Notes: generated by a model from the sequence alone, not told the origin. DNA of 64,000 nucleotides from an uncultured Christensenella sp. (GCA_964541825.1 CAZIRR010000003.1:983-64982), one strand, 5' to 3'. Shown: positions 7,238 to 39,972, counted from the stretch's first letter. Numbers and translations are program-made.

Positions 7238-7268
7238 CTAAATTAACGAAAAAAATTTGGAGTTAAAT

Positions 7269-8285: not shown

Positions 8286-8302
8286 TTGAATCAAAAAAAG
8301 AA

Positions 8303-8334
8303 ATGTATTATGAATATCATAATGCATTTTTTTT
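8303..8334 (+). terminator. rho-independent terminator
   Basis: Stem ATGTATTATG / CATAATGCAT, 5-nt loop, then a T-run. Confidence 0.7.
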
Positions 8335-8415
8335 GTAAATTTATAATAATTTTTTTACATAAAGAGATGTCTTTTTCAAATACTAAAAATGATAACATAT
8401 TTATGGAAGGTGTAT

Positions 8416-8964: not shown

Positions 8965-8965
8965 T

Positions 8966-12166: not shown

Positions 12167-12320
12167 ATTTTTATGTGAAAAAGATAATGAAAAGCAATAA
12201 ATTATTTGCTAAAAAATAGCAGAAAATATATAATAAAATTGATTGAGTAATGATTATTTGAATTCAATCACTTATTATCAAAAACAATAATACTTAATTA
12301 AAAATTAAATGAGGTATATT

Positions 12321-13505: not shown

Positions 13506-13522
13506 TTAGCAAGGTGTAGATT

Positions 13523-15789: not shown

Positions 15790-15812
15790 CGAAACTTTTG
15801 AAGGATAAATTT

Positions 15813-16049
15813 ATGAATTTAATGCTAGGGGCATTTGCAAATTTTTGGTATACGTTTTATAATACTTGCTTTAGAAATGTAGATACCAAGGTTAGATACA
15901 CTGTAGGTGGAATTTTGATATTATTATCAATCGTTGTATTTATATTTTGTACCAAAGGTAAGAGCAAAAGCGAACTTGTCAATAATTGGTTTTTGTTTTG
16001 GATTTCAATGATTTTGTTGATTTGTGGTGTATTATATATGTCAATATGA
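15813..16049 (+). CDS. small two-TM hypothetical membrane protein
   Basis: ORF with two hydrophobic segments. ATG at 15813 is preferred over the TTG at 15798. No homology recognised. Confidence 0.4.
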   Translation: MNLMLGAFANFWYTFYNTCFRNVDTKVRYTVGGILILLSIVVFIFCTKGKSKSELVNNWFLFWISMILLICGVLYMSI

Positions 16050-16122
16050 CCAAAAAATATTGCTAAATTAATAATAATGTGATAAACTTAAATGAATTTA
16101 AATACTATATTAGGAGAATTTT

Positions 16123-16425
16123 ATGAACTTCAGTTTTTTATGTGATGTATCAGCAGGTGTAGCAGATACCCTAACAGTCGTTAGGTCGATACTTCTTATT
16201 CTTACTGCTATAGCATCAATTGCAATTATTGTTGCAGTACTTATTCAACCATCAAATCCTGATGGCGGTAGAAATGTAATAACTGGCACAAACGATAGTT
16301 ATTATGCACAAAATAAAGGCGACACCAAAGAAGGTAGACTAAAGAAAATTATTATTATCTGCTCGGTAGTAATTTTGGTACTAACTATTGCTTTTTATGT
16401 AATTGAGCATTTCTTTGCTGGCTAA
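16123..16425 (+). CDS. secG: preprotein translocase subunit SecG-like protein
   Basis: Two TM helices flank a G/N-rich loop, with VLIQPSN resembling the SecG VLLQxGKG segment. It lies immediately upstream of rnr, as in Bacillus (secG-rnr-smpB-ssrA). SD is AGGAG. Confidence 0.6.
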   Translation: MNFSFLCDVSAGVADTLTVVRSILLILTAIASIAIIVAVLIQPSNPDGGRNVITGTNDSYYAQNKGDTKEGRLKKIIIICSVVILVLTIAFYVIEHFFAG

Positions 16426-16442
16426 TATAAAAAAATAAAGAG

Positions 16443-16474
16443 AGGCTTTTTGTAAAACAAAAAAGCCTTTTTTA
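16443..16474 (+). terminator. rho-independent terminator after secG
   Basis: Stem AGGCTTTTTG / CAAAAAAGCCT followed by a T-run. Confidence 0.7.
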
Positions 16475-16488
16475 TACAAAAGGAATTT

Positions 16489-23553: not shown

Positions 23554-24141
23554 ATGGGCAGAACAGATATTCATCACGATAAAAAGAAAATTGAGATTAT
23601 GGAAAAGTGTTTTGAGTGTTATGCTGAGTATGGGTTTGGAAATGTGGGCATCAAAGGGCTTGGTAAATATTGTGGATTTTCTTCGGCAAATTTGTATAGC
23701 TATTTTAATGACCTTGACGACCTTATCATTCAGGCAACCGAACACTCAATGAGCAAAGTGGAAGATGAATTTATGGCAAAAGCGCCTACAAATGTAGGGG
23801 AACTTGAGGGGTTTATTGATGAAATTCCATATTGGACAGCAAAAAATCACGGCAAAAAATATAGGCTTATGTATCAAATTTACACAAACCCCAAGTATAT
23901 AGAAAGTGGCAAAAAGTTTTTTGAAGGCGTAAACAAAAGATATACAGAGTATGCAAAAATTCTCGAGCCAAAACTCGGGATTGACTACAAAATCATAGTT
24001 TCGTTTATATTTATTTTGGTTAGGGCGAGTGTTCACTATGCGATGTTCGAAGATGAGTTTTACTTAAAAGCTCAAATAGAAACTCTAAAACAATCTTTAA
24101 AAATGTTTATACAATACAATAAAGGAAAGGAGAATTTATGA
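23554..24141 (+). CDS. TetR/AcrR-family transcriptional regulator
   Basis: N-terminal HTH (IMEKCFECYAEYGFGNVGIKGLGKYCGFSSANLYSYF) followed by a helical C-terminal domain. ATG at 23554 follows GGAGAAAG. Its stop overlaps the next start (ATGA at 24138). Confidence 0.85.
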   Translation: MGRTDIHHDKKKIEIMEKCFECYAEYGFGNVGIKGLGKYCGFSSANLYSYFNDLDDLIIQATEHSMSKVEDEFMAKAPTNVGELEGFIDEIPYWTAKNHGKKYRLMYQIYTNPKYIESGKKFFEGVNKRYTEYAKILEPKLGIDYKIIVSFIFILVRASVHYAMFEDEFYLKAQIETLKQSLKMFIQYNKGKENL

Positions 24142-25640
24142 AAAAGTTTATTAAAACATTTATTTTAGCAATATGTTTGATTTTGCCAAGTTTGTTTTGC
24201 TTGACCGCTTGTGATAACAAAAGTTGTGTGCATACTTTTGGTGAGTGGACAATAGATACTAATGTAACTTGCATAGTTGATGGTGAGGAGTATCGAGAAT
24301 GCACAGAATGTGGATATAAAGAAACTCAAAGTATTCCGGCAACTGGACACACTTTCGGTGGATACATTATAGACGAAATCCCAACAACTCAAAATGGTGG
24401 TGAGTATTATCGAGAATGTGAAACTTGTCACGAAATAGACAAAGTTACTGTATCCGCATTAAAATCAACTGGACTAGAATTTGAACTTAATGAAGATAAA
24501 CAAAGTTATGCCGTAACTGGAATTGGAAGTTGCACAGATAAATATATCAATATTCCAAATACACATAATGGTTTGCCGGTTACTGCTGTTGCAGGACATG
24601 CTTTTTACACTAATGATTATATTACAGGTGTAACATTATCTGAGAATACAAAAAGAATTGAGGCTGGTTCTTTTGCTTCTAGTCATATAACAAGTATAAC
24701 GATCCCTTCATCTGTGGAATATATTAATTATAACTCTTTTCAGAATTGTGCAGCACTTGAAAGTGTAATGTTTGAGAGCGGTTGCAAATTAACAACAATT
24801 TCCTCTGGCTCTTTTGCTAGGTGTACATCACTCAAACAAATAACTATTCCAAAAACCATTGTGACAATAGATGGCAATGCATTTACGGGTTGTACTTCAC
24901 TTGAAAGTATAATATTTGAAAATGATAGCGCATTAACAACAATTAATGGATATGCTTTTGATAGTTGCACATCTCTTAAACAAATAACAATTCCAAAGAG
25001 TGTGACTACTATTGGCTGGGATATCCTAAAAGACTGTAAAGCACTAACAACGGTAACTTTTGAGGAAGGAAGCGAGATTACAACAATTGGAGCTGGAATG
25101 TTTTATGGTTGTTCCGCTCTTACAACCGTTGAGTTCCCAAGCAGTGTTACAACTTTGGAGTTTGGTATTTTCTATAATTGTTCTGCTTTGACAAGCGTAA
25201 TTTTCCCAAGTGGTGTTACCAAAATGGAAAATATAATGTTTGCGGGTTGCACATCACTTACAAGTATTGTTATCCCAGATGGTGTTACTAGCATTGGTTC
25301 GAGTGCATTTGATGGTTGTACCGCACTTACAAGTATAGTTTTGCCAAGCAAAGTCGAAAGTATAGGCGCGAATGCATTTGATGATTGTACCGCACTTACA
25401 AGTATAGTTTTGCCAAGCAAGGTCGAAAGTATAGGCTCGTATGCATTTAATAATTGTACCGCTCTTTCAAAAATATACTATATGGGGACCGCCGAAGATT
25501 GGTCAGAAATAAGTATAAATACCTACGATAATGGCAACGCTTGTTTGACAGTAGAAAACATTTATTATTATAGCGAAACTCAGCCTGACCAATCGGGCAA
25601 CTATTGGCATTATGTAAATGATGTTCCAACTGCTTGGTAA
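24138..25640 (+). CDS. BspA-type leucine-rich-repeat lipoprotein (500 aa)
   Basis: Lipobox LFCLTAC. Two Cys/His mini-repeats (HTFGEW..C..GEEYRECTECG). About 23-aa LRR units (FxxCTSLxSIxIPxxVTxIGxxA). C-terminal YYYSETQPDQSGNYW motif. Confidence 0.85.
   Translation: MKKFIKTFILAICLILPSLFCLTACDNKSCVHTFGEWTIDTNVTCIVDGEEYRECTECGYKETQSIPATGHTFGGYIIDEIPTTQNGGEYYRECETCHEIDKVTVSALKSTGLEFELNEDKQSYAVTGIGSCTDKYINIPNTHNGLPVTAVAGHAFYTNDYITGVTLSENTKRIEAGSFASSHITSITIPSSVEYINYNSFQNCAALESVMFESGCKLTTISSGSFARCTSLKQITIPKTIVTIDGNAFTGCTSLESIIFENDSALTTINGYAFDSCTSLKQITIPKSVTTIGWDILKDCKALTTVTFEEGSEITTIGAGMFYGCSALTTVEFPSSVTTLEFGIFYNCSALTSVIFPSGVTKMENIMFAGCTSLTSIVIPDGVTSIGSSAFDGCTALTSIVLPSKVESIGANAFDDCTALTSIVLPSKVESIGSYAFNNCTALSKIYYMGTAEDWSEISINTYDNGNACLTVENIYYYSETQPDQSGNYWHYVNDVPTAW
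25305..25442 (+). repeat. near-identical 69-bp tandem duplication (two LRR units) inside the LRR gene
   Basis: Unit 25305-25373 and unit 25374-25442 differ at only a few bases. They encode FDGCTALTSIVLPSKVESIGANA and FDDCTALTSIVLPSKVESIGSYA. Confidence 0.9.
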
Positions 25641-25756
25641 TAATTTTGATAAATAGAAAAAACAGTATAGAAGATAAAGTGAATTTTGAAAATATTTATA
25701 GAATACAATGGAAAAAAGAGAGAATTAATAAATTTTTCATAAAGGAAGGAGTAATT

Positions 25757-28700
25757 ATGAAAAAGATTTTGAAAACATTTATTTTAGCAATTTGTTTGAT
25801 TTTGCCAAGTTTGTTTTGCTTGACAGCCTGTAATGTGGAAAGTGAAATGGCAAAAGTTTCTAGTTTTTCGGTAGAATTAGACAATGAAAAATACATATTG
25901 GTCGGTGATACTATCACACTTACTTATGGGCAAGATTATAGGCTGTCGACAAGCGATTTTTCGGTTACCGCCACATTTGAAGATGAAACAAGCAAGACTT
26001 TGACTTCAAACGAGTTAAATGACTATGGCTTCACTTTTTCTTCAACTATTCCAAATAACGAAGTGACACCTGTTGGAGAATATACACTTACACTTGGCAA
26101 TGAAAATGTATCCGAAACAGATTATTACACAATTAAAGTCAATGTTTTGAAAAAGGTTGTTGATATAAACGCAATTGGTTTAATTTGGGCTGATGAGGCA
26201 ACACCTTTTGTATATGATGGAGAATATCATACAAATGAAATTACAAATCTTCCAGAATATTTGGAAATAGAAGGCCATAATGACAATAGAGAGATATATC
26301 CAAATGGTGCGATATATCCGAATACAAATATAATTATCGGAAGCACATATTATGCACAAGTTTCGCTAAAGGTAAAAGATGAATATGCAGATAGTTATGT
26401 TCTAGGAGATAAAAAATCCATACAACACGAGTGGACGATTGCAAAAGCAACAATGGAAATGCCATCTTTTGAACTAAAAGAATTAACATATAATGGAACT
26501 GAACAAAAAATTTCATTTACTTCAGCTTCGGCAAAAGCATTAAGCGATAGCAAGATAAGTTGGAGTTTTTCGGGGCAGACCCAACAAACAAATGCGGGGA
26601 CTTATGAAGTTTCCATCTCGTTTAGTTATAATGGCGAAAATAAGACGTTCTATGATTTGGGTGAAGATTATTTAATTGGGACATTGGTCAGCACTTGGAC
26701 AATAAGTCCAGCAATAATTGATTTTTCTAATGTATATCTTACAAGCAAAACTTCATCATCTAATCCTATAAAATATGATTTTGCCAATGCATTAACTTAT
26801 TCAAAAGAAGAGTATACTGTTGGATTTGAAGGCATTGAATGTGATTTGTCGCTAGGCGATGACTTCTTTTCGTACGAGTTTGATGGAGATAATTCAAATC
26901 AAACGACTGTCGGAGGTTATAGTTTAAATATTGAATATTCCATTAAAAATGAAAGTGATAGACAAAATTTTGTAATTATCTATAACAAACCAACAAATAG
27001 TGAGATTTCTTGTATCTGTTTAAATTCTTATACGGCAAAACTTGTTACAAATTGGGAGATAAAACCATTTGTAATTGATACAAGCAATATTAAATTAAAG
27101 TATAAGTTTGCTGGTAGTTATAGTGATTATGATGATACAGTCTTTGAATATGATGGCGAAGAGAAATCTGTCGTGTTTGACTTGAGTTCTCTTGTCGAGT
27201 ATGTTGATGAGACTATCTATCCAGTTGAATATGATGGGGGATTGTTGCCATCAACAGGTAATAGAGGAGATATCATTCTAGGGTATCATCGTATTGATGA
27301 AGCGGTATTTACAGCAACAGATGCCGGGACATATTTTGCGACAATTGAATTTGAACTATCTCAATTTTGTTTGGAATCTTCGAACTATACTATTTCAAAT
27401 ACAACAATTACAAAAGAATGGAAAATTAATGCGAAAAAATTGAACAATTTGGAACTATACTTAACCAATTTTGAATATGACAATTCAACAAGAAATTATG
27501 TTTGTACAAAAACTCTTTCTTCTGCTGATGGTGTAATTAATGATGACAATGTTACACTTACTATAAAGGCTTGCAGACCTGACACTCCAGCAAATGGGGC
27601 TTACGAACTATGGTATAACAAGGATATGCAGGGCGAAGTAGAAATTATTGCTTGCGACAATACAAATTATACTTTTGAAAATGGCTCTAATGGTTGTGGC
27701 ACTGCTTATGTCTTTGATAAATTTGATGTCAACAATGGCATAACTGTAGGGCGTCCAAGTAGCGAATATTACATCGTAGAGTTAGAGCTTAATGCAAATA
27801 GTTCTATGAAATATCGTTTCGAAACCTCAGCCGATAATATTTCGTTTACGCTGAAAGATGAAAATTTGGTGGAAATTAGTTATAACGATGGATTTACATT
27901 AACAAATGATACCAATGATACAAAGAAGTTTGTGATATATATGATAGTTCCTAATAGCGGGCAAGGAACAATAAAATTGTATAATCATAGAGCTGTTCTT
28001 ATGGACGGCGATAATGTATATCAAACACTAAATGTTGTAGATGGTTATGACCTAAGCGAAATTATGTCATCAAAAACACATTATACTTTTGGTGGTTGGT
28101 ACACTGAAGCGAATGAAGAAGTAACAACAATAACGAGTGATGTTACTCTTTATGGAAAATGGACACCAATCGACTATACAATAACTTATACAAACACCGA
28201 AAGTATGGAAAATACTAATCCAACCACATATAATATAGAAACCGAAACAATAACGCTTATATCGCTAGCGGACAAAGTGGATTATGCATTCGATGGTTGG
28301 TATTATAATAACGAAAAAATTACAACAATTCCAAAAGGCTTTACTGGTGGAGATATAACATTAGAGGCAAGATGGAAACAAAAAGAAGAGTATATACCAC
28401 TTGATTATACCATTGATGAAAATGGCGGAGTTAAAATAAATGGAGTAAAAGACAAATCAACTCTAACAAGTGTTACAATTCCAAAGGCTGTTGTGGAAAT
28501 ATCTCGAAATGCATTTCGATTTTGTACAGCGCTTGAAAGTGTAACTTTTGAGAGCGGTTGTAAATTAACAACAATTTCTGATAGTGCATTTTATAAATGT
28601 ACAGCACTTAAACAAATAACTATTCCAAACACAGTTGTGGAATTATCTGGGTATGTATTTTATCTTTGTGAAGCGCTTGAAAGTGTAACTTTTGAAGATG

Positions 28701-29605
28701 ACTGCAAATTAACAGCAATTTCTAGTTGTGCGTTTGGCTGGTGTAAAGCACTTAAGCAAATAACTATTCCAAAAACCATTGTGACAATAGATGGCAATGC
28801 GTTTGAGGAATGTATAGCTTTGACAAGTGTAACATTTGAAAATTATAGTGCGCTAACAACAATTAATGGTCTTGCTTTTGGCGGTTGTACATCGCTCAAA
28901 CAAATAATAATTCCAAAGAATGTTGTGACAATGGGAGGAGATATATTCAGAAATTGCACAGCACTAACTTCTGTAACATTTGAAGAAGGAAACGAGATTA
29001 CAGAAATTGGAAGTTGTACGTTTGAAAATTGTACTTCTCTTACAACAGTTGTTTTTCCAAGCAGTGTAAAGACGTTGGGTCATGGCGTTTTCTTTGGTTG
29101 TTCTGCTTTGACAACTATAGTATTTCCTAGTGATTCAGTGGAAATTGCAGATATTATGTGTGAAGGTTGCACATCGCTTACAAGTATTGTTATTCCAGAT
29201 GGTGTTACTAGCATTGGTTGGCGTGCATTTTATGGTTGTACCGCACTTACAAGCATTGTTGTACCAAGCAAAGTTACAAGTATAGGCACTGAGGCATTTG
29301 GTGGTTGTACCGCACTTACAAGTATAGTTATGCCAAGCAAAGTTGAAAGTATAGGCACGAGTGCATTTGATGGTTGTACCGCTCTTTCAAAAGTATACTA
29401 TATGGGTACTGCCGATGATTGGGCAAAAATAAGTATAAATTCCAACAATAATGGCAACGCTTGTTTAACGGCAAATATAATTTACTACTATAGCGAAACT
29501 CAGCCTGACCAATCGGGCAACTATTGGTACTACGGCGAAGATGGCAATCCTGTCGTTTGGCAATATGAAGAAGGCTTAGTTAATCAAGAAATATTTGATG
29601 ATTAA
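25757..29605 (+). CDS. large BspA-type LRR lipoprotein (1282 aa) with Ig-like and Listeria-Bacteroides (Flg_new-like) repeats
   Basis: ATG at 25757 follows AAGGAAGGAG. Its signal peptide MKKILKTFILAICLILPSLFCLTAC is almost identical to that of the upstream paralog. The central HYTFGGWYTE...VTLYGKWTP and YAFDGWYYNNEKI...LEARW segments resemble Flg_new repeats. A C-terminal LRR array and YYYSETQPDQSGNYW follow. Confidence 0.85.
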   Translation: MKKILKTFILAICLILPSLFCLTACNVESEMAKVSSFSVELDNEKYILVGDTITLTYGQDYRLSTSDFSVTATFEDETSKTLTSNELNDYGFTFSSTIPNNEVTPVGEYTLTLGNENVSETDYYTIKVNVLKKVVDINAIGLIWADEATPFVYDGEYHTNEITNLPEYLEIEGHNDNREIYPNGAIYPNTNIIIGSTYYAQVSLKVKDEYADSYVLGDKKSIQHEWTIAKATMEMPSFELKELTYNGTEQKISFTSASAKALSDSKISWSFSGQTQQTNAGTYEVSISFSYNGENKTFYDLGEDYLIGTLVSTWTISPAIIDFSNVYLTSKTSSSNPIKYDFANALTYSKEEYTVGFEGIECDLSLGDDFFSYEFDGDNSNQTTVGGYSLNIEYSIKNESDRQNFVIIYNKPTNSEISCICLNSYTAKLVTNWEIKPFVIDTSNIKLKYKFAGSYSDYDDTVFEYDGEEKSVVFDLSSLVEYVDETIYPVEYDGGLLPSTGNRGDIILGYHRIDEAVFTATDAGTYFATIEFELSQFCLESSNYTISNTTITKEWKINAKKLNNLELYLTNFEYDNSTRNYVCTKTLSSADGVINDDNVTLTIKACRPDTPANGAYELWYNKDMQGEVEIIACDNTNYTFENGSNGCGTAYVFDKFDVNNGITVGRPSSEYYIVELELNANSSMKYRFETSADNISFTLKDENLVEISYNDGFTLTNDTNDTKKFVIYMIVPNSGQGTIKLYNHRAVLMDGDNVYQTLNVVDGYDLSEIMSSKTHYTFGGWYTEANEEVTTITSDVTLYGKWTPIDYTITYTNTESMENTNPTTYNIETETITLISLADKVDYAFDGWYYNNEKITTIPKGFTGGDITLEARWKQKEEYIPLDYTIDENGGVKINGVKDKSTLTSVTIPKAVVEISRNAFRFCTALESVTFESGCKLTTISDSAFYKCTALKQITIPNTVVELSGYVFYLCEALESVTFEDDCKLTAISSCAFGWCKALKQITIPKTIVTIDGNAFEECIALTSVTFENYSALTTINGLAFGGCTSLKQIIIPKNVVTMGGDIFRNCTALTSVTFEEGNEITEIGSCTFENCTSLTTVVFPSSVKTLGHGVFFGCSALTTIVFPSDSVEIADIMCEGCTSLTSIVIPDGVTSIGWRAFYGCTALTSIVVPSKVTSIGTEAFGGCTALTSIVMPSKVESIGTSAFDGCTALSKVYYMGTADDWAKISINSNNNGNACLTANIIYYYSETQPDQSGNYWYYGEDGNPVVWQYEEGLVNQEIFDD

Positions 29606-29796: not shown

Positions 29797-30537
29797 TTAG
29801 TTCTCCATCTCGAAGCCTTCTGGCAATGTAATGCCAAGTTCTTCGTTTGGATATGGAGAAATAGACCTAATGTCAATATCGAACTCATCGCAAGCTGTAG
29901 TTAGGCTAGAATATAGGTCAATTACAGAATCAATCATTCCGTGAGTCAAAGCATAGTATTTTTCGTCTTGATTGCCTCTGCTGTGATGATAGTGCTTGAA
30001 TGCAGAAAATTTGTAATCAAACAAAGTGTCTAATGCATTACATTGTTCGAATTGAGCAAGTATATTGTCTTTGTCTATTTGTTTGCTTGCAATATTGTAT
30101 CTATCTTTTAGCAAATTTGGCAATACATAAGTTTTCAAAAAATTGTACATAGTGTATTTGTCTTTCAAAACTTTATCAACTTCTACATTTTCGTAGTCTA
30201 GATGATAATTGATGTATTCCGATACAATCTTTCTAGATACGTCCGAATATTCATCTTTATATTGCTCATTGTTGCCAAGTGCCAAATCAATAAATTCGTT
30301 GTCTTTGTTTGCTAGTGTTATTTTTCCACAATAAATTGCGTCATCTCCTACAAATTTTGGCATTCCTGCATACACAAAATTAAATGCTTCTTTGTAATTA
30401 TCGATTCCGCTAGCTCTCATTCTTTTCTTGAATTCTTTGTTATATTCTTTTTCGCTTATAGGCATATATCCATCAGCAATTGCTATTGCCATAAGTATAG
30501 CATTTTCGTTTTGAATATTGATATCAGATTTTTTCAT
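29797..30537 (-). CDS. hypothetical acidic cytoplasmic protein (orphan)
   Basis: ORF with ATG at 30537 preceded by GGGGTGGG; the track start at 30552 is a TTG. No signal peptide or TM segment, acidic C-terminus, no motif recognised. It is divergent from the XRE gene. Confidence 0.6.
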   Translation of the reverse strand: MKKSDINIQNENAILMAIAIADGYMPISEKEYNKEFKKRMRASGIDNYKEAFNFVYAGMPKFVGDDAIYCGKITLANKDNEFIDLALGNNEQYKDEYSDVSRKIVSEYINYHLDYENVEVDKVLKDKYTMYNFLKTYVLPNLLKDRYNIASKQIDKDNILAQFEQCNALDTLFDYKFSAFKHYHHSRGNQDEKYYALTHGMIDSVIDLYSSLTTACDEFDIDIRSISPYPNEELGITLPEGFEMEN

Positions 30538-30753
30538 ATTGTCCCACCCCAAATCTTATTTTGGATATTTTAGCATATCCAAAAGCAAATTACAATACTT
30601 ATATTGAAAAATAACATAATTATATTATTGAAATCAAAATAATAATTGTCATTGTCCATTTTTCTGATAATCAATTTTACAAAAATGTAATATATTATTG
30701 ACAAATATTCGAAAATTGTTATAAAATGTAAACAAAAAGGTAGGGTTTTGAAT

Positions 30754-31710
30754 ATGAATTCCAAATTTCAGTCCAATCTAAAAAAATTAGCACAAAATTA
30801 TAGCCAAAAGCAAATAGCACTCAAGACTGGATTTTCGCAATCGAGTATCAATAATTATTTGTCGGGCAGTAGCGACCCCTCAATACAATTCGTTATATCA
30901 CTTAAAGAAGCTTTTGGGATAAGTGTGGACGATTTTTTGTTTTCCGACTTTGAGATTGAGAACAAAGTGTCTTATGACCAGTTTTTGGGGAATTATATCA
31001 TTTATTATTACAATAATAGCTCTTACAAAGGTGAAGTCCATACCAATATATCCAATACTTTGAATTACGGTGTGCTAAGCGTATTCAAAAGTAGCGGGAC
31101 GGAAGATACTCACGTTTGTGCGACATTTTTCAAAGAAAAGATAAGCGCTACACGTATGCTAAAACTCCTTAATGCAGATATAGATAGGACAGAAGAGATA
31201 TATAGAAACCAAGGCAACCTGTATGAGGGAGATATTTCTTATACCGACCAAAGTTTGTTTTTGCATTTGTCCAATAAAGATAATTGCGACAAATGTTTCA
31301 TAATTCTCAATAATCCTCCTACCAAACAAAATTACATTGGTGGAGTGGGGACAGTTAATTCTATAGCAAGGGGAAGAGAACACAATCCTTGCGTGCAATT
31401 TATTATTCTTTCCAAAAAAATAATCGATGTGCCAGATGGCGAATTGTACAAAATTTTGAAATTCGAAGATTATTCTGTCAACCTTGACTATGCTATCAAA
31501 GATACTATAGAATTATTCAAAAGATTGTATGCCGAAAATAACGAACTCTCCATAGAACTAAACGATGACCAAAAATTGGCTATAGTTAGGAACAAATTGG
31601 AATATTACTTCAATGATATTTTGAGTGCAAATACCTTTCGCTTTGCCAAAGTTTCCAATAAAGAAGATGATGGCATCTATAAATTAATCAAGGAGGGGAT
31701 AGATGCTTGA
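30754..31710 (+). CDS. XRE-family HTH protein with ~250-aa uncharacterised C-terminal domain
   Basis: N-terminus LKKLAQNYSQKQIALKTGFSQSSINNYLSGSSDPSIQFVISLKEAFGISVDDFLF is a Cro/C1-type HTH. The remainder is unrecognised. The stop overlaps the start of the next gene. Confidence 0.8.
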   Translation: MNSKFQSNLKKLAQNYSQKQIALKTGFSQSSINNYLSGSSDPSIQFVISLKEAFGISVDDFLFSDFEIENKVSYDQFLGNYIIYYYNNSSYKGEVHTNISNTLNYGVLSVFKSSGTEDTHVCATFFKEKISATRMLKLLNADIDRTEEIYRNQGNLYEGDISYTDQSLFLHLSNKDNCDKCFIILNNPPTKQNYIGGVGTVNSIARGREHNPCVQFIILSKKIIDVPDGELYKILKFEDYSVNLDYAIKDTIELFKRLYAENNELSIELNDDQKLAIVRNKLEYYFNDILSANTFRFAKVSNKEDDGIYKLIKEGIDA

Positions 31711-33130
31711 TTTAGTAGAAAAAAGATTTGAATTAATTTTGCAAATCGCCAAAGATAATTATTTGCCTCTAGAAATAATCAAAAAAGCATATGCCGTTGC
31801 CAAAAATTTGCACAAAGACCAATTGCGAAAAGACGGCTTGCCATATATAAGCCACCCTGTCGAAGTTGCATTGATTTTGGCTAAACTAAACTTTGACGAA
31901 AATGTCATTTGTGGGGCTATTCTTCACGATACTATAGAAGATTGCGACTATCTCCCAGAACAAATGGCAAAAGACTTCAATTCGACTATTTTTAATTTTG
32001 TAGATTGTGTAAGTGCTATAGATAAGACTAAATATGTCTTTGACAAAAATAATCTCTATGAAGACGAAAATTTCGTAAAATCATCAGCCGAAGAACAGAC
32101 TTTTATCAAACTTATTAGCCTTGGCAAAAAAAATCCTTGCGGATTTGCCATCAAATTTGCAGATAGACTACACAATTTGAGGACTATTACTTGCTTTGAT
32201 TATTCCAAACAATTAGAAAAAGTCCGCGAGACCGAGAAATGGGTCATTCCTCTAGCCAAAGCGCTTAAATCGGAATATTTCTATAGAGCTATCAAAAATG
32301 AGTGCTTCAAGATTGTCAATAAATATGCCGGTAGACAATTTTTCTCGGCTTACGAAAATTATCATAATTCCAATAAAGCCCGCATAGGAAAATTGACTGT
32401 CGCTCTCAAAGAAATATTTGCAGGCACTTCTATCGTTGGTGTCAAAATCAAAGATGTGAGAGAGTACAAAGTATTCGAGGACTTGCAAAAAATCTATAAG
32501 TTTATAGATATATCCAAGATTTCTCAAGGTCAAATAATTGGCGTGACTAATTATAATATTTATCTCCTTTACAAAGATACTGCCAAAAAGAATGTAATAT
32601 CCGAAGTCCTAGATATCCTCTCTAGGACTCAGATGAAAGTTATAGACGCCAAAGTAGGCGGTTTTACAGACAAAGTGTATTTGCAATTCGAAGATGAAGT
32701 CAATAATAAATACAATATTTATATTATGAGCGAGGGCGAATATCAAATAAACAAAGTCGGCACATTTGTAGGTCAAAATGTAGATAGTATTGACGAAGAC
32801 AATATCAATCACCTAGAAGAAGAATTAATTAGGATAAAAACTAGGTCGGGAGAAATCAAATATATCGCCAAAAATAGTAGTGTTTTGGACTTTGCGTTCA
32901 AAATTCACAAAGATCTAGGCTTTGCATTTAAATATGCCATCATAAACGATAGCAAAACCAAATTCCCACCATACACCAAATTGAATAATAATGACAAAGT
33001 TGAGATAGTTCTGGCCAAAGACGATGGGGGTGGACTTATCAAGTCTCCACAACTTCGCTGGCTGGCTTATGTCAATACCGAACTTGCCAAAAGAATACTT
33101 ATCAAATATTTCGAAAGTATGCTTAAGTAG
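31703..33130 (+). CDS. truncated RelA/SpoT homologue: HD hydrolase + degenerate synthetase-like region + TGS
   Basis: HD-domain motifs RKDGLPYISHPVEVA, HDTIED and KFADRLHNLRT. TGS-like IRIKTRSGEIKYIAKNSSVLDFAFKIHKDLGF...NDKVEIV. Expected synthetase motifs are substituted. AGGAGGGG SD 5 nt upstream; start overlaps the XRE stop (ATGCTTGA). Confidence 0.8.
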   Translation: MLDLVEKRFELILQIAKDNYLPLEIIKKAYAVAKNLHKDQLRKDGLPYISHPVEVALILAKLNFDENVICGAILHDTIEDCDYLPEQMAKDFNSTIFNFVDCVSAIDKTKYVFDKNNLYEDENFVKSSAEEQTFIKLISLGKKNPCGFAIKFADRLHNLRTITCFDYSKQLEKVRETEKWVIPLAKALKSEYFYRAIKNECFKIVNKYAGRQFFSAYENYHNSNKARIGKLTVALKEIFAGTSIVGVKIKDVREYKVFEDLQKIYKFIDISKISQGQIIGVTNYNIYLLYKDTAKKNVISEVLDILSRTQMKVIDAKVGGFTDKVYLQFEDEVNNKYNIYIMSEGEYQINKVGTFVGQNVDSIDEDNINHLEEELIRIKTRSGEIKYIAKNSSVLDFAFKIHKDLGFAFKYAIINDSKTKFPPYTKLNNNDKVEIVLAKDDGGGLIKSPQLRWLAYVNTELAKRILIKYFESMLK

Positions 33131-33211: not shown

Positions 33212-34492
33212 ATGTTAGAACAAGTTTCAAAATTAAAAGAAGGCAGAGTTAGATTTGGCGGAATTGTAGATACCGTTAGGGACAAAAAAAATATACAATT
33301 CGTTATCATTAGAGATTTTAGTGGCAAAATCCAACTTACTATAGACAAGGTTGCACACCCAGAAGTGGGCGAAGTCTTTGCTCATTTGCTTCCTGGCTCT
33401 TCTGTGGTAGTGACTGGCGAATTGGTGCTATCCGAATATGTCAAGATGGGTGGCAAAGAAGTGCTAGTAGATAGCGTAGAAGTGACTAGTACTGCCGAAG
33501 TTAGCCCAATTGACGCAGATACCTCTATCGACCAGAGGATAGACTATAGATGGCTAGATTTGCGTACAAACAAAAATTTGCTTATGTTCAAAATTCAGTC
33601 TTTTGTGCAAGAATGCTTCAGACAATTTTTGTCCGAGAGAGATTTCTTGGAAATCCATTCACCTAAACTAATTGGTACAGCATCAGAGAGTGGCTCAGAA
33701 GTATTTGAAGTCAAATATTTCGATACCAAAGCATATTTGGCTCAGAGTCCTCAATTCTACAAACAAATGGCTATTTGTGGCGGTTTTGGTAGAGTATTTG
33801 AGTGTGGTGCAGTGTTTAGAGCAGAGAAATCTCACTCCAAAAAACACGCCACCGAATTTACCGGCTTTGACCTTGAATTTGCTGGTATTGAGAGTTTCGA
33901 AGACGTTATGGCTATGGAAGAACAATTGCTAGAGTATACTCTTAGACAATTAAAAGAGAAATTTGGCGACCAAATCAAAGAAACTTTTGGCATAGATGTA
34001 GTAGTGCCTACTCTTCCTTTCCCTCGTATCAAACTTGCTGACCTGTATGCTCAATTGCAAGAGAACTTCGGCTACACCGTGCCAGTAGAAGAACAAGACG
34101 ATATGACTACCGAGGCTGAGAAATTGTGTAGAGAATATGCTATGCAGAAATACGGCCACGAATTCATCTTTGTTACCGATTTTGGTGCTAGGAAAAGGGC
34201 TTTTTATCACCTAAGGAAAGATGGCATTCCTCAAGGCTACGACCTTGTGTGGAAGGGTATGGAGATTACAACTGGCGCTCAGAGAGAACATAGATATGAT
34301 ATTTTGAAAGCTCAAGCCGAAGAAAAAGGCCTTGCAAAAGACGTAGAATTCTACCTACAATTCTTTAGATATGGCTGTATGCCTCACGGTGGCTTTGGAC
34401 TAGGCCTAGATAGATTTATGTGTTGCTTGCTAGACACCAATATCAAAGAAGTCCAATTCGTATTCCGTGGCCCAGATAGACTTGCTCCATAA
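33212..34492 (+). CDS. aspS: aspartate--tRNA ligase, archaeal/type-2 (short, ~426 aa; possibly non-discriminating)
   Basis: Class IIb motifs FRAEKSHSKKHATEFTGFDLEFA and GGFGLGLDRF, with a C-terminus ...RGPDRLAP resembling the archaeal-type AspRS ending. Its length fits type 2 rather than the ~590-aa bacterial type. Confidence 0.75.
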   Translation: MLEQVSKLKEGRVRFGGIVDTVRDKKNIQFVIIRDFSGKIQLTIDKVAHPEVGEVFAHLLPGSSVVVTGELVLSEYVKMGGKEVLVDSVEVTSTAEVSPIDADTSIDQRIDYRWLDLRTNKNLLMFKIQSFVQECFRQFLSERDFLEIHSPKLIGTASESGSEVFEVKYFDTKAYLAQSPQFYKQMAICGGFGRVFECGAVFRAEKSHSKKHATEFTGFDLEFAGIESFEDVMAMEEQLLEYTLRQLKEKFGDQIKETFGIDVVVPTLPFPRIKLADLYAQLQENFGYTVPVEEQDDMTTEAEKLCREYAMQKYGHEFIFVTDFGARKRAFYHLRKDGIPQGYDLVWKGMEITTGAQREHRYDILKAQAEEKGLAKDVEFYLQFFRYGCMPHGGFGLGLDRFMCCLLDTNIKEVQFVFRGPDRLAP

Positions 34493-34721: not shown

Positions 34722-37700
34722 ATGAAAAATGGAAATAAATTACTCAAAAAACTAGCTACATTTGGGCTTATTCTTGCTACCGCAATATCTTTGGGTGGCG
34801 GTTTTTTGACATCTCCTATAGATGAAATCAATGCTATATCCGATACGGATAAGGCAAATAAAACTAGCTTTGTCAAAGTTGGCGAATTGTACAATACTGC
34901 CGACCAATCCTTTAATGCAGATAATTACAATATCTTGCTTAAATACTTGACAGGTAATTCTAGTGCTACTCTTGCTAATGTGACTACACTTGCTTCGGCT
35001 AATAACAATCAATTCTCGTCATCGGGATACATAGGCACTGACGCTAGTGTAATTAGGGCCAAAACCCTAACCGCCGGCACCCAGGGGTCTACATCATATC
35101 TAGCCAAAACTAGTAGCAAAGACGTGTGTGTTCGTCTAGGTGGTCTAGATTGGCAGGTAATGTACTTGACCAAGAATACCAATAATGACACTATCCTCAC
35201 CCTTTGGCTAGATAATAATATCCAAGAAACTTGGTCAAGCCAGTCTAGTTCGGGGACTAAATACGGATTCTTAGATGGTGGACTGTATAGCGAGTTTTCT
35301 TATAACTATGTTGATAGTTCTTATTCTTCTAATTATCCTGCTGCTTCGTATGGCACTAGTTATGTCCATATAGTTACTCTTAATAATGGCGGGACATATT
35401 CTACTAGTACTACTGCTACATCTACATTTACTCCGTCTTCATCTAGTATCTTTGCCACATTTACAATGCCTGAGTATGGACTTACAGATTATCTGGTTAC
35501 CCCTAGAACTATCTCTTGGCAAGAAGACCAATCTTCTAAGACCATTTTGTCAAAAACTTATAAGTATTCTAATGAAGATTATACTACAAATCAGAGCAAT
35601 ACTGATTATTATGGAAGTTATAATTACTCCGGCAAGACAAATTATGATGCTTGGGCAGACGATTATCTATGGCTTCCAAGCATTAGTGAAGTAGGCCAAA
35701 ATACCACATATACAGGACTTTGGAATTCATCTATTTATCAGAAACAAAATGCATCGGGATCTGATAGCGAAACTACTCTAGGCAAAGTAGACGCAACTAA
35801 TGATAATGCATATCCTATGGTTTGGGTTCGTACGGGGTGTGTTGATAATGCTAATTATGCATACTATATCGCTACAGGTGGTGCAGATTTTGTTTGGAAA
35901 AAATGTTCGTGGTCTCTTGCAGTACGTCCTGCTCTTCACCTAAATCTATCTGCCATAGATGCCTCTATCCTAAACGACGTCTCTGTCGGCGAACTATATA
36001 ATTCTAGTAGTAAAACTTTTAACGAAGAGAATTATGCCATTCTGCTTAAATACTTGACAGGTAATACCGATGCAACTATAGATACAGTAGCTACTTTGGC
36101 AGGGACTAATAACAATCAATTCTCCTCATCGGGATACACAGGTACTGATGCCGGTGTAATTAGAGCCAAGACTCTATCTGCTGGCACCTATGGCACTACT
36201 TCTTATGCCGAGAAGAAGAAAGGCGACATCATCGTCACCCTGGGCGGTCTCAAGTGGCAAGTAATGTACTTAAGCCAGTCCACCGATGGAGATACTCTCC
36301 TCACTCTGTGGCTAGACAATAGCACCCAAGACGCTTGGACAGGACGGTCTAGCACCGAGGGGACATACTATGGATATATAGATGGTGGACTGTATAGTAT
36401 GTGGTCTGCTAATTACAATATAGATAATCCAGGAGACGCATATCCTAGCAATATGTATGGTACGAGCTATATAAATACCATTACTCTTAATAATGGCGGA
36501 TATTGTTCGGTAAGCGGTACATCTACGGGTCCAACAACTAAATCTACATCTAGTGCATTTGCACTCTTTACCATGTCCCAGTATGGACTTACAGATTATC
36601 TGGCTACTCCTAGAAAAGTAAGCTGGCAAGAAAACCAGTCAGTTCTAGATATACTAGATAGCTATTCATATAGACTGCCAAACGAGGCATATGCATCAAA
36701 TATAGCAGATAGCGAATTTTCTTACGATAGCAGTCTTGGCGAATATTACAATTACTCCAACAAAACATACAATGATGCCTGGGCAGATGGCTACCTATGG
36801 CTTCCTAGTAGAAGCGAAGTAGGTAATTCATCTAGTGACCCCGGTTTGTGGAATACATCTTTATCTCAGAGACAAAATTATGATGGGACCACAACTACAG
36901 CCCTAGGGACAGTAGGAAGTGGTGGAGGCTCGGCATATGCATATACCTATCTTCGCTCGGGGAATAATAATTCAGGAAGAATAGTAACTTCATTATCTCC
37001 AGCAGGACTAGGGTTGGAGGGTAATACAAACAGGTTTGTTAATTATTGTATGGCAGTCCGCCCCGCATTACATCTAAATTTGAGCGATATATATGATAAA
37101 CTTTATGGCGATGTTTCAGTCGGCGAACTCTATGATTCTACAAATATGACTTTTAACGAAGATAATTACAATATTTTGCTTAAATACTTGACAGGCAATG
37201 CTAGTGCTACTATAAGCACAGTGTCTACATTGGCTGGGACGAATAACAATTCATTTTCTTCATCAGGATATACAGGAACAGATTCTAGTTATTTTAGAAG
37301 CAAAACTCTATCTGCTGGTACTTCTGGCTCTACCGCCTACGCCGAGAAAAAAATAGGGGATATTGTCGTTACCCTGGGAGGCCTCAAGTGGCAAGTAGTG
37401 TACCTCAGCAAATCCACCGATGGAGATACCATAGTAACCCTTTGGCTAGATAATAGCACCCAAGACGCTTGGGCGGACCGCTCCAATACTGAAGGCGATT
37501 ATTACGGCTTTATAAACGGTGGTCTGTATAGTATGTGGTCGGCGAATTGGATCAATGCCACTCCTGGCACTAGCCCATCAAATATGTATGGTACTAGCTA
37601 TATAAATGCTGTAACACTTAATAATGGCGGATATTATGCTACAGGTAATGATAATTCTGCTTCTGGTGGAAGTGCTGAACTAATGTCGAGTAAGACAAAT

Positions 37701-38861
37701 GTAGCATCACTTAATGTAAGTATTGGCGAAGAAATAATTGAACTACCAGAACAACCAATTACAGCAAACGACTATGAATTATCAAGCGTGTCCGCATATA
37801 GTGCATTTGCACTCTTTACTATGGCTGAGTATGGACTTACAGATTATTTAGTTATTCCAGTTTGGGTAAGTTGGCAACAAAATCAAAGTGCCAAAACATT
37901 ACTTTCGGCTAGGTATAATAATCCTAATGAAGCATGGTCTATAGCCACTTCTGATGATGGGTTTTATTCCTCTGATTATAATTATGCTAGCAAGGATTAT
38001 AACGACGCCTGGAAGCATAATTACCTATGGCTACCAAGTCTGTCCGAGACAGGTTATTCAAGTAGTTGTTCTGGTCTATGGAATTCATCAATTTCTCAAA
38101 GAAAAAATTTTGACGGAAGCACTATTTCGTCACAGGGGTCTGTAGGCTCTACTAGTGGCTCAGCACATCCTTACACGTGGCTCCGTTCTGGCTTTTACAG
38201 TAGTTCAATTTTTGCTTACTATCTCAGTACGGCAGGCTCAGGTGGCAGTATTATTTGTTATTCTAGTGTCGGTAGTAGTTATGCTGTCCGCCCAGCATTA
38301 CATCTAAACTTGACCGATATATACGCTAATCTAAATGCAGTAAGTCTAGAAGAAGGTGGAGAGATAACTGTATCTCCTTCGAGTGCTACTTATGATGGAC
38401 TGGCTAAAACTCCTACAATTACCGTCAAAAATAATGGCACGACACTAACTGCGGGTACAGATTATACCCTAAGTTACACACTTAATAGCAGTACAGTATC
38501 TGAGATGAAAGAAAAAGGGACATATACTATCACTGCTACTGGTAGGATAGGATACACTGGATCTATAAGCACGACTTTTGTGATAAAAGATGCTGAGTTA
38601 TCTGTTACCATATCTCCACCAAATGAGTATGTGACATTTGTGCGGGGGAGCAATCCTACTTTGTATCTGCAAGACGGCTCGTATATGCTAGTCCTCGGTA
38701 CAGATTATACAGTGACACACACAATAAATTATGATAATCTTATAGGGGTAGCTGTCATAGTTGGCATAGGTGGTTATGGGGGAACAATGACGATTAATTA
38801 TACTATTATCCTCTTAGACCCTGTAGCCAATATCTATTTGATGAAACCAGCTCCTCAATAA
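34722..38861 (+). CDS. secreted 1379-aa protein with three tandem ~370-410-aa modules and C-terminal Ig-like (MBG/YDG-type) repeats
   Basis: Sec signal peptide (KKLATFGLILATAISLGGG). Each module starts VGELY...YNILLKYLTGN, contains LGGLxWQVxYL, LTLWLDN and YLWLPSxSE, and ends AVRPALHLNL. The tail has ATYDGLAKTPTITV...GTDYTLSY...GTYTITATG. Confidence 0.85.
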   Translation: MKNGNKLLKKLATFGLILATAISLGGGFLTSPIDEINAISDTDKANKTSFVKVGELYNTADQSFNADNYNILLKYLTGNSSATLANVTTLASANNNQFSSSGYIGTDASVIRAKTLTAGTQGSTSYLAKTSSKDVCVRLGGLDWQVMYLTKNTNNDTILTLWLDNNIQETWSSQSSSGTKYGFLDGGLYSEFSYNYVDSSYSSNYPAASYGTSYVHIVTLNNGGTYSTSTTATSTFTPSSSSIFATFTMPEYGLTDYLVTPRTISWQEDQSSKTILSKTYKYSNEDYTTNQSNTDYYGSYNYSGKTNYDAWADDYLWLPSISEVGQNTTYTGLWNSSIYQKQNASGSDSETTLGKVDATNDNAYPMVWVRTGCVDNANYAYYIATGGADFVWKKCSWSLAVRPALHLNLSAIDASILNDVSVGELYNSSSKTFNEENYAILLKYLTGNTDATIDTVATLAGTNNNQFSSSGYTGTDAGVIRAKTLSAGTYGTTSYAEKKKGDIIVTLGGLKWQVMYLSQSTDGDTLLTLWLDNSTQDAWTGRSSTEGTYYGYIDGGLYSMWSANYNIDNPGDAYPSNMYGTSYINTITLNNGGYCSVSGTSTGPTTKSTSSAFALFTMSQYGLTDYLATPRKVSWQENQSVLDILDSYSYRLPNEAYASNIADSEFSYDSSLGEYYNYSNKTYNDAWADGYLWLPSRSEVGNSSSDPGLWNTSLSQRQNYDGTTTTALGTVGSGGGSAYAYTYLRSGNNNSGRIVTSLSPAGLGLEGNTNRFVNYCMAVRPALHLNLSDIYDKLYGDVSVGELYDSTNMTFNEDNYNILLKYLTGNASATISTVSTLAGTNNNSFSSSGYTGTDSSYFRSKTLSAGTSGSTAYAEKKIGDIVVTLGGLKWQVVYLSKSTDGDTIVTLWLDNSTQDAWADRSNTEGDYYGFINGGLYSMWSANWINATPGTSPSNMYGTSYINAVTLNNGGYYATGNDNSASGGSAELMSSKTNVASLNVSIGEEIIELPEQPITANDYELSSVSAYSAFALFTMAEYGLTDYLVIPVWVSWQQNQSAKTLLSARYNNPNEAWSIATSDDGFYSSDYNYASKDYNDAWKHNYLWLPSLSETGYSSSCSGLWNSSISQRKNFDGSTISSQGSVGSTSGSAHPYTWLRSGFYSSSIFAYYLSTAGSGGSIICYSSVGSSYAVRPALHLNLTDIYANLNAVSLEEGGEITVSPSSATYDGLAKTPTITVKNNGTTLTAGTDYTLSYTLNSSTVSEMKEKGTYTITATGRIGYTGSISTTFVIKDAELSVTISPPNEYVTFVRGSNPTLYLQDGSYMLVLGTDYTVTHTINYDNLIGVAVIVGIGGYGGTMTINYTIILLDPVANIYLMKPAPQ
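34878..38340 (+). repeat. three tandem intragenic modules (about 1107, 1134 and 1220 nt)
   Basis: Module starts (codons for VGELY) lie at 34878, 35985 and 37119. Conserved DNA blocks such as cttaaatacttgacaggtaat recur in each module. Confidence 0.85.
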
Positions 38862-39123: not shown

Positions 39124-39972
39124 ATGTCAAATATAAAGGTTTTTGAGAATAAAAAAGTTAGAACAGAGTGGGACGCAGAAAAAGAAGATTGGCTTTTTAG
39201 TGTTGCTGATGTTTGCAATATTTTAGCGGACAGTCAAGCAAAAGATAAAAATGCTTATTGGAGAAAATTAAAGCAACGTCTAAAAAATGAAGGGAGTGAG
39301 GTCGTGACAAATTGTCACGAACTGAAATTAGTCTCCGAAGATGGGAAAAAATACAAAACAGATGTTATGTATACTAAGGATATATTGAGAATTGTTCAAT
39401 CTATTCCTAGTCCAAAAGCAGAGCCTTTTAAGATGTGGCTTGCTTCGTGCGGAAGTGAACGTTTAGATGAAATTGCCGACCCGCAAAAAGCAATAGATAG
39501 GGCGATTGCAATGTATCGTGAAAAGGGATATTCGGAAGAATGGATAACCCAAAGAATGATGACTATCAAAATGCGTAAAGAACTCACTGCTGAATGGCAA
39601 GATAAAGGCATTACGCAAGAAAAAGACTATGCAATTCTAACTAATGAAATGACTAAAGCTTGGTCTGGAATGAGTGTGCAAGAATATAAAAAATTTAAGG
39701 GCTTAAAGAAAGAAAACTTGCGTGATAACATGACAAATATTGAGTTAGTCTTAAATATGCTTGCCGAAGTTACTACGACTGGTTTGTCTAAAAATGAAAA
39801 TCCCAAAACTTTTAACGAAAGTAAACAAATTGCAAGGCGTGGTGGAACTATTGCTAAAAATGCAAGAAAAGAATATGAAGAACAACTTGGTAAAAGTATT
39901 ATCTCTCCAGCAAATGCAACCAATAAAAAATTGTTAGAAGTAAAAGTTCATAATACTAGCGACGAAGAATAA
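39124..39972 (+). CDS. Bro-N domain / DNA-damage-inducible protein D (DinD)-like protein
   Basis: N-terminus VFENKKVRTEWDAEKEDWLFSVADVCNILA is Bro-N-like. The C-terminal half (KGLKKENLRDNMTNIELVLNMLAEVTT...ARRGGTIAKNARKEYEEQLG) parallels E. coli DinD as I recall it. Confidence 0.7.
   Translation: MSNIKVFENKKVRTEWDAEKEDWLFSVADVCNILADSQAKDKNAYWRKLKQRLKNEGSEVVTNCHELKLVSEDGKKYKTDVMYTKDILRIVQSIPSPKAEPFKMWLASCGSERLDEIADPQKAIDRAIAMYREKGYSEEWITQRMMTIKMRKELTAEWQDKGITQEKDYAILTNEMTKAWSGMSVQEYKKFKGLKKENLRDNMTNIELVLNMLAEVTTTGLSKNENPKTFNESKQIARRGGTIAKNARKEYEEQLGKSIISPANATNKKLLEVKVHNTSDEE

Follow-up and report, generated by a model that had tools for sequence, protein, structure and literature searches.

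The 64,000-nt window analysed here, a stretch of the genome of an uncultured Christensenella sp. (GCA_964541825.1, CAZIRR010000003.1:983-64982; positions are counted from its first nucleotide), contains two overlapping genes, of which the first encodes an XRE-type protein and the second a truncated long RelA/SpoT homologue (RSH) with an HD hydrolase domain, a pseudo-synthetase (pseudo-SYNTH) domain and a TGS domain, called the HD-TGS protein below. The hydrolase-only truncated long RSH and its obligate XRE-type partner are a real and conserved pair. The locus is probably a self-contained two-gene module in which a SpoT-like, hydrolase-only paralogue of the long RSHs is produced together with its partner. 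A preliminary description of the window, made from the sequence, had named the truncated long RSH as the best candidate for an undescribed system, and the PubMed Central (PMC) open-access and bioRxiv searches returned no description of an RSH hydrolase with an XRE partner, which is absence of evidence only.

The Pfam scan of the 475-amino-acid (aa) protein matched HD_4 at residues 29-186 (E-value 5e-21, 75 bits against a cut-off of 27) and TGS at residues 376-436 (4e-13, 49.5 bits against a cut-off of 22). RelA_SpoT was not matched by Pfam even at E ≤ 1, and the NCBIfam model spoT_relA reached 167 bits, its cut-off being 499. The best 120 homologues listed were mostly 473-485 aa long (range 444-497) and carried HD_4 and TGS alone. 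When the family profile was compared with the PDB sequences, only residues ~20-246 and ~370-475 were aligned to Rel, RelA and SpoT and the synthetase core went undetected at sequence level, and the comparison of the family with real long RSHs by hhalign gave a probability of 97.8% over 385 columns. The AlphaFold2 (AF2) model of the protein had a predicted local distance difference test score (pLDDT) of 81 and a predicted template modelling (TM) score of 0.70, and its top Foldseek match was the hydrolase-only SpoT of Acinetobacter baumannii (7qpr, E 4e-22). The HD-TGS protein belongs to the RSH superfamily and derives from the long RSHs; on this point, and on the intact HD, the lost synthetase motifs and the truncation after TGS, Pfam, the alignments, Foldseek and the PDB profile agree with the preliminary description. 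All seven peptides quoted there occur in the translation, namely RKDGLPYISHPVEVA (residues 42-56), HDTIED (75-80), KFADRLHNLRT (151-161), IKDVREYKVFEDL (249-261), NYNIYLLYK (283-291), FTDKVYLQF (321-329) and NIYIMSEGEY (338-347).

In the family alignment A1, which includes 27 diverse members down to 57% identity, the residues R42, H51, H75, D76, E79, D80, D154, R155, N158, R160 and T161 were invariant. They align with RKSGxPYIxHP, HDxxED and ADRLHNMRT of the solved Rel enzymes, and the metal-binding and catalytic pattern H..HD..ED...D(R)xxN is fully present. Among the PDB sequences the HD domain was closest to the long-RSH HDs of Rel and RelA (E 1e-19 to 3e-31), the small hydrolases being matched far more weakly (1e-5 to 4e-10). 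The family-specific insertion in the alpha6-alpha7 region stands opposite gaps in the Rel of M. smegmatis, M. tuberculosis and B. subtilis; residues 110-127 of this region had pLDDT below 50, yet the insertion stretch is 64% identical within the family. In SpoT and Rel, the alpha6-alpha7 element gates hydrolysis (PMC9974481). Most likely, the protein hydrolyses (p)ppGpp but does not synthesise it. A drift of the HD phosphohydrolase to a non-alarmone substrate, such as NADPH as in Mesh1, or to other nucleotides is very unlikely: a (p)ppApp hydrolase and Mesh1 in complex with NADPH or PAPS are among the structural matches, and the insertion is peculiar to this family, but the HD is nearest to the long-RSH HDs, well ahead of the small hydrolases, and all the Rel hydrolase motifs are retained.

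The middle domain is, as modelled, a pseudo-synthetase that has kept the fold and lost the motifs. The AF2 model shows five strands with flanking helices at residues 205-350, and Foldseek aligned ~355-375 columns of the model to the N-terminal HD+SYNTH structures of Rel with a target TM of 0.66-0.75. RxKxxxSxxxK, the catalytic Asp strand, GYxSxH and ExQxRT were found neither in the window protein nor in the family consensus, the pseudo-SYNTH region gave no significant score with the SYNTH hidden Markov model, and regular-expression searches did not find synthetase motifs either. The only conserved basic residues within positions 236-350 are K256, K324 and K336. The region is still constrained, with a mean pairwise identity of 53% in the family, compared to 70% in HD and 75% in TGS. 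In the preliminary description each synthetase motif had been paired by eye with its replacement. The loss of the motifs was confirmed, while the mapping of residues was supported for the first motif only, in which hhalign, MAFFT and the predicted strands alike placed IKDVREYKVFEDL at RQKHFYSVYKKL; the alignment of the family profile to the PDB long RSHs breaks off at residue ~246.

In the TGS domain, H402 is invariant within LDFAFKIHxDxGF in the 27-member alignment. The corresponding histidine reads the tRNA CCA end in Rel and RelA, and its equivalent has been lost in A. baumannii SpoT (PMC9974481). The tail beyond the Pfam TGS match measures ~35-39 aa, not the ~25 aa given earlier, and consists of the first helices of the helical domain, as the motif W..YVNT..AK..LI, with which this domain begins in all long RSHs, aligns to DWL..V.T..AR.KI..F of full-length Rel. 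The ZFD/CC, the RRM/ACT and the remaining helical domain are absent, since the protein ends at residue 475. The missing ZFD and RRM argue against canonical ribosome docking; the enzyme may be ribosome-independent, as the preliminary description predicted, but the CCA-reading H402 is retained. More than 100 homologues share the same C-terminal end point, and this conserved length rules out a frameshift or a pseudogene as the origin of the truncation, the former having been named in the preliminary description as an outcome that would overturn it. The gap between the stop codon and aspS is only 81 nt, which leaves no space for a hidden C-terminus.

The coupling of the two genes extends far outside the genome of the window. 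The genome scan, covering one genome per species, found 62 HD-TGS loci, all of them in metagenome-assembled genomes (MAGs) of uncultured Clostridia, Christensenellales or 'Candidatus Onthoplasma'. The partner was immediately upstream on the same strand in 58 of the 58 loci with complete upstream DNA; in a further locus, L022, the partner copy was cut by the contig end. When these 58 loci were measured together with the window, the genes overlapped in 53 of the 59 pairs, most often by 8 nt (36 pairs), less often by 11 nt (11 pairs), the other six overlaps measuring 2-20 nt. Clustering of the flanking open reading frames (ORFs) recovered the pair in 58 and 63 loci and any other gene family in at most nine, and the XRE/HD-TGS pair is the sole conserved unit at these loci. 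In the window, the partner stop codon overlaps the HD-TGS start codon by 8 nt (ATGCTTGA), with AAGGAGGGG just 5' of it.

The pairing extends to distant relatives. When 1.84 billion representatives were searched exhaustively with the profile, 897 matched at E ≤ 1e-30, counted as representatives at 50% identity. Approximately 120 of the top 150 were without a recognisable synthetase domain and scored above canonical Rel; nearly all of these have kept the hydrolase motifs HDxxED and ADRxxN, and RxKxxxSxxxK, GYxSxH and ExQxRT were absent from the relatives among the top 150 that lack SYNTH motifs. The class includes proteins of ~470-530 aa, of 620-690 aa with an N-terminal helical extension of ~150 aa, and of ~610 aa with a second TGS. 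In all four distant members examined, the gene directly upstream codes for 351-383 aa and is homologous to the partner over its full length (partner profile A2, E 1e-33 to 1e-57), with G.Y..Y, Y-x-GG-x-GT and a conserved Q shared at 26-32% identity. The tight coupling to the XRE gene that had been noted in the window is thus also present in these distant members. Also P0494 (L162 4001-5470), a 489-aa RSH, is truncated after TGS, but it retains Pfam RelA_SpoT and its upstream gene is an Rrf2 regulator and not an XRE-type partner; since the pseudo-SYNTH members do have the partner, this goes specifically with the pseudo-SYNTH class. The N-terminal extensions of the 620-690-aa relatives showed no homology to the partner, and therefore give no gene-fusion support for an interaction between the partner and the hydrolase. 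The few database entries naming family members call them only 'HD domain-containing protein'.

Among the N-extended and double-TGS variants, L073 1334-3355 and L074 3504-5330 (P0401, P0390 and relatives) have a partner homologue directly 5'. L062 1264-2961 encodes a 565-aa RSH in which an intact HD is followed by a partly degenerate SYNTH, by TGS and by an ACT-like end. Its SYNTH keeps RKH, Asp and E.Q, GYQSLH has become MYEALQ and Arg has become Cys. This RSH, which may represent an intermediate, is not preceded by an XRE gene.

The start codon of the partner is most likely ATG 30754 and not the TTG, and is preferred because the homologues align from residue 3 and a ribosome-binding site, AGGTAGGG, lies 8 nt upstream. 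Foldseek matched the N-terminus to the N-terminal domains of SinR, C.BclI and C.AhdI at TM 0.7-0.8. Residues ~70-318 matched nothing in Pfam, NCBIfam, PADLOC, PHROGs or the PDB sequences, and against PDB the beta-rich domain gave only weak lipocalin-, fatty-acid-binding-protein- or LolA-like Foldseek matches (E > 1e-3, TM ~0.45). Two loops, YYYNNxxYKGE and GGxGTVNSxxRGREHNPC (31339-31392), are highly conserved in the partner, and the core Y-x-GG-x-GT and Q215 are invariant even at 26-32% identity. The promoter-like site is sigma-70-like and ends 27 nt 5' of the partner start codon. A -35 of the TATTGACA type recurs 5' of the pair in other loci. It was the only element found by k-mer enrichment in 56 upstream regions, no better than in shuffled sequences, and a conserved operator 5' of the partner was not found.

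Table 1. Positions of the two-gene locus, its parts and the adjoining gene in the 64,000-nt window.
Feature	Position	Strand	Remarks
Promoter-like site TTGACA-18-TAAAAT	30698..30727	+	11/12 matches, best scan score; consensus match only
Partner gene, 318-aa XRE-family protein (HTH, beta-rich domain, helical tail)	30754..31710	+	ATG start; mechanical ORF call TTG 30748
Helix-turn-helix DNA-binding domain of partner	30790..30936	+	Pfam HTH_3 5e-11, residues 15-63 of 320-aa ORF
Beta-rich domain of partner	30988..31413	+	AF2 model, nine strands between residues 79 and 220
Translational-coupling junction	31691..31710	+	AAGGAGGGG ribosome-binding site, then HD-TGS ATG 31703
HD-pseudoSYNTH-TGS protein gene	31703..33130	+	ATG start, 475 aa; truncated hydrolase-only long RSH
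HD (3'-pyrophosphohydrolase) domain	31787..32260	+	Pfam HD_4 29-186; catalytic and metal-binding residues complete
Family-specific insertion of ~11-14 aa, HD alpha6-alpha7 region	32021..32086	+	Gaps in Rel alignments
Pseudo-synthetase domain	32315..32752	+	SYNTH fold retained, catalytic motifs gone (model)
Short low-confidence linker, position of long-RSH 'Core'/disordered region	32753..32821	+	pLDDT <50 at 354-372; placed after PMC9974481
TGS domain	32828..33010	+	Pfam TGS 376-436; CCA-sensing histidine position kept (H402)
Two terminal helices, start of helical domain, protein end	33047..33124	+	Helices 449-457 and 460-474
Non-discriminating aspartate-tRNA(Asn) ligase gene (aspS), neighbour outside the module	33212..34492	+	NCBIfam NF003483, 402 bits vs 353

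The deep and obligate co-conservation of a DNA-binding protein with an RSH-like protein could also be read as an alarmone-responsive transcription switch, in which the RSH-like protein is mainly a sensor that binds (p)ppGpp at the HD or the pseudo-SYNTH pocket and gates the DNA binding of the XRE protein, so that genes would be regulated and not the bulk of the alarmone turned over. The conserved polar residues of the pseudo-SYNTH domain (Q275, N283, N285, D315, D331, K324, K336 and N338) are in line with such a pocket, and the two highly conserved, low-confidence loops of the partner could form the interface. The invariant catalytic residues of HD nevertheless favour a working enzyme over a pure sensor, and neither a regulon nor, in the 56 upstream regions, an operator speaks for the switch, which is quite improbable.

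The module could alternatively be a toxin-antitoxin-like or anti-toxin-defence system, with the XRE protein as an antitoxin-like repressor and the HD-TGS protein acting on a target other than free alarmones, for example by removing the 3'-pyrophosphate that toxic small alarmone synthetases (SASs) add to the tRNA CCA, with TGS holding the CCA. The overlapping bicistron with the XRE gene first would suit this, as would the genomic neighbourhood that differs between species, the two module copies in one genome and the invariant histidine of TGS, the CCA-reading role of which is known from elsewhere (PMC9974481). There is also a precedent, hydrolase-only RSH proteins being known antitoxins of toxSAS systems (PMC7229694). 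Against it, neither a toxSAS nor any other conserved third gene was found near the pair. The partner, with its 318 aa and a large conserved extra domain, is not of the usual size, typical XRE antitoxins being ~100 aa long. The window is core chromosome, including pgk, tpi, gpmI, rnr, glmS, glmM, groEL and tig. The PADLOC defence models did not match the hydrolase, and collections of 2.9 million viral contigs, 72,556 plasmids and 50,697 phage records yielded no close relatives; the matches in them were 21-50% identical, and most were either short proteins with the hydrolase only or normal Rel of full length. The reading of the locus as a defence island or a mobile element, having no PADLOC, phage or plasmid support, was rejected, and a toxin-antitoxin-like role appears clearly unlikely.

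According to the preliminary description, the position next to aspS echoed the Bacillus neighbourhood and the gene might be a remodelled housekeeping Rel, which would make it the only long RSH of the organism in an ancestral relA-aspS setting. The adjacent aspS, 81 nt downstream, and the lack of a second RSH in the 64-kb window would agree with this. However, aspS directly downstream of the pair was confined to the window and a contig of 4 kb that encodes an identical protein; none of the 62 genome-scan loci had it there, not even the two closest ones (78-80% identical). Furthermore, the aspS of the window encodes a 426-aa ligase of the non-discriminating archaeal type, whereas that of Bacillus is of the bacterial type with ~590 aa. 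The HD-TGS class is also old and diverse, as seen from the synthetase-less majority of its top representatives, and in L023 the pair is accompanied on the same contig by a separate full-length, recJ-linked long RSH that belongs to a large family. The echo of the Bacillus neighbourhood was thus not upheld and the remodelled Rel is contradicted; it is highly improbable and largely refuted.

L023 is the MAG RGIG9067, in which the XRE/HD-TGS pair is at 7075-9457 and recJ at 12229-14580, ~2.8 kb downstream of the pair. Directly after recJ follows a long RSH of 695 aa (14577-16664) with HD_4, RelA_SpoT, TGS, RelA_AH, RelA_RIS and ACT in Pfam, and then a radical-SAM gene. In the family of this recJ-linked Rel, which includes at least 120 clusters of 693-703 aa, the synthetase motifs RQKHFYSVYKKL, DLxAMRVLV, GYQSLHTTI and EIQIRT are intact. 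At the hydrolase site the RxxGxPYxxHP segment is missing through a deletion of 13 aa, HDxxED has become FQxxK (FQFSKV in L023) and KLADRLHNxRT has become KFATILYDLK(L); in the Rel of L023 none of the hydrolase residues for metal binding and catalysis is left. The combination of a dead HD with an intact synthetase was present in 20 of the 20 aligned members (alignment A3). The order recJ-rel-radical SAM is common to the family, with rpsO and pnp next in some of the loci examined only. Directly downstream of recJ is also the position of relA in Bacillus. By its sequence, the recJ-linked long RSH looks like a RelA-like [hS] enzyme that has arisen inside Bacillota. Since the Rel of L023 is RelA-like and at the housekeeping position, the HD-TGS protein is a paralogue and a plausible source of the hydrolase activity that this Rel lacks.

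In the most probable interpretation, a self-contained hydrolase module, the second gene would encode a competent HD 3'-pyrophosphohydrolase with a pseudo-SYNTH scaffold, TGS and the first helices, the ribosome-binding C-terminus having been lost. The retained pseudo-SYNTH and TGS would, in a minimal format, hold alpha6-alpha7 for hydrolysis as in A. baumannii SpoT (PMC9974481). The partner would be translated in step with the hydrolase and would either bind it as a regulatory subunit via the conserved loops or tune the expression of the operon on a ligand or signal sensed by the beta-rich C-terminal domain. A physical complex of the two proteins is favoured because the two genes have stayed together down to ~25-30% identity and through several domain rearrangements; that the partner controls the hydrolase we infer from the gene linkage only. 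With 'Rel[hS] + HD-TGS[Hs]', Clostridia would then have arrived independently at a division of labour like that of RelA and SpoT, in which the truncated enzyme would be the main alarmone hydrolase; we infer a Rel with a dead HD also in the genome of the window itself. It is rather unlikely that the complex forms a new signalling device, that is, a transcription factor gated by (p)ppGpp or deacylated tRNA, or a tRNA-CCA 3'-de-pyrophosphorylase that repairs damage caused by toxic SASs.

Several observations weigh against the hydrolase module. The hydrolase-dead Rel was seen alongside the pair in one MAG only, L023, and the 64-kb window contains no other RSH. One genome has the module twice (L033 and L058), which is unusual for a housekeeping function. 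The substrate is taken from homology. The alignments of pseudo-SYNTH strands 2-5 by hhalign and MAFFT disagree, and because the methods differ, the loss of the catalytic residues is concluded from the lack of the motifs and of conserved charged residues and not from a single fixed alignment. The kept H402 suggests from conservation that tRNA sensing may persist, which the simple picture of a constitutive hydrolase does not explain. The C-terminal domain of the partner is, in an AF2 model with a mean pLDDT of 69, without a confident fold assignment, and also the lack of a conserved operator in the upstream regions belongs here.

The switching off of the stringent response is far less understood than its switching on, and to our knowledge A. 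baumannii SpoT is the only hydrolase-only long RSH that has been structurally dissected. If the interpretation is correct, the HD-pseudoSYNTH-TGS protein is a natural minimal hydrolase with which the C-terminal parts needed for hydrolase control could be tested, and the bifunctional Rel has been split a second time, independently and inside Bacillota, into a synthetase-only and a hydrolase-only enzyme. The obligate partner would combine DNA binding with an uncharacterised, strongly conserved sensor-like domain, and through the module, abundant uncultured gut Clostridia could adjust their alarmone levels independently of the ribosome or pass alarmone signals on to transcription. Should the proteins form the signalling complex, a hydrolase-like protein would do more than bulk alarmone turnover, and in the transcription-factor version the alarmone would act on transcription in Clostridia directly. 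With 897 representatives the family is large, and annotation would gain broadly from the characterisation of one member.

The surroundings of the pair included some further features. L033 and L058 share the 236-kb contig DWVI01000002.1 of Ca. Onthoplasma faecipullorum and are diverged copies that have 58% and 51% identity with the window protein. The type of aspartyl-tRNA synthetase in the window implies formation of Asn-tRNA via transamidation; gatB and an amidase gene were present in related loci (L159). On the minus strand at 29797-30552, a 251-aa ORF had no Pfam, NCBIfam or PHROGs family match; such an ORF was opposite-strand 5' of the pair in five loci by tblastn and in six, including the window, by ORF clustering. 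Large flanking ORFs on the plus strand are at 25634-29605 (1323 aa), 24138-25640 (500 aa, with BspA-type leucine-rich repeats) and 34722-38861 (1379 aa, internally repetitive by eye). A Bro-N domain protein is encoded at 39124-39972 on the plus strand, ~6 kb downstream in an otherwise housekeeping region; proteins with this domain are usually phage-associated.

In comparison to known systems, the HD-TGS protein is not a small alarmone hydrolase (SAH), not RshC as defined and not a SpoT of the type with a full C-terminus. The SAHs (Mesh1, RelH, PbcSpo and Aph1) likewise have a hydrolase-only RSH HD and gave weak to moderate sequence and fold matches, but they are single-domain proteins (matching chains 141-204 aa), whereas the window protein has 475 aa with pseudo-SYNTH and TGS. 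With SinR, ImmR and the C-proteins, XRE regulators that carry C-terminal sensor or oligomerisation domains, the partner shares the N-terminal HTH_3 only, its C-terminal part of ~250 aa being outside the known sequence families. The type II toxin-antitoxin systems with an XRE antitoxin are similar in being bicistronic and overlapping with the HTH gene first, but the link to mobile elements or to a known toxin or defence was not found for the window pair.

Like the window protein, RshC[HS] of Bacillus is a second copy of a long RSH that breaks off within the helical domain; it has been described as [HS] from a monophyletic Bacillus group of six strains only (Atkinson et al. 2011, PMC3153485). 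Unlike RshC, the window family lacks a recognisable SYNTH and occurs, together with its obligate XRE partner, in uncultured Christensenellales-like Clostridia. The B. thuringiensis plasmid pHS18-1 (NZ_CP012100.1) carries, next to an IS4 transposase, an RSH-like ORF (L158 3165-4346) that is not annotated, is cut at the N-terminus and stops just after TGS. Its synthetase motifs are degenerate and it has no XRE gene upstream; it may be a remnant of the RshC type.

The division of labour between RelA[hS] and SpoT[HS] of the E. coli type resembles the situation in L023, where the Rel likewise combines a dead hydrolase with a live synthetase and a separate paralogue would supply the hydrolase. The differences are the independent origin inside Bacillota, the truncated and wholly synthetase-dead hydrolase, and the co-occurrence observed in one genome. 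The closest functional analogue, and also the best structural match, is the Moraxellaceae SpoT[Hs], represented by A. baumannii SpoT (SpoTAb, PDB 7qpr), which is a monofunctional hydrolase long RSH with an intact HD and a retained non-catalytic pseudo-SYNTH and works beside a separate synthetase-only RelA (PMC9974481). In SpoTAb, pseudo-SYNTH and TGS are scaffolds that activate hydrolysis; pseudo-SYNTH, Core and TGS hold alpha6-alpha7 hydrolysis-competent, and the full regulatory C-terminus forms a tau-state (PMC9974481). SpoTAb keeps HEL, ZFD and RRM and a Core of ~45 aa, whereas the window protein stops after the first post-TGS helices and has a linker of ~23 aa. The CCA-reading histidine of TGS, lost in SpoTAb (S407), is the invariant H402 in the window family, which also has an XRE partner of a kind not described for SpoT. 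SpoTAb is from Gammaproteobacteria and the present family from Clostridia, which would mean that the two hydrolase-only long RSHs have originated independently.

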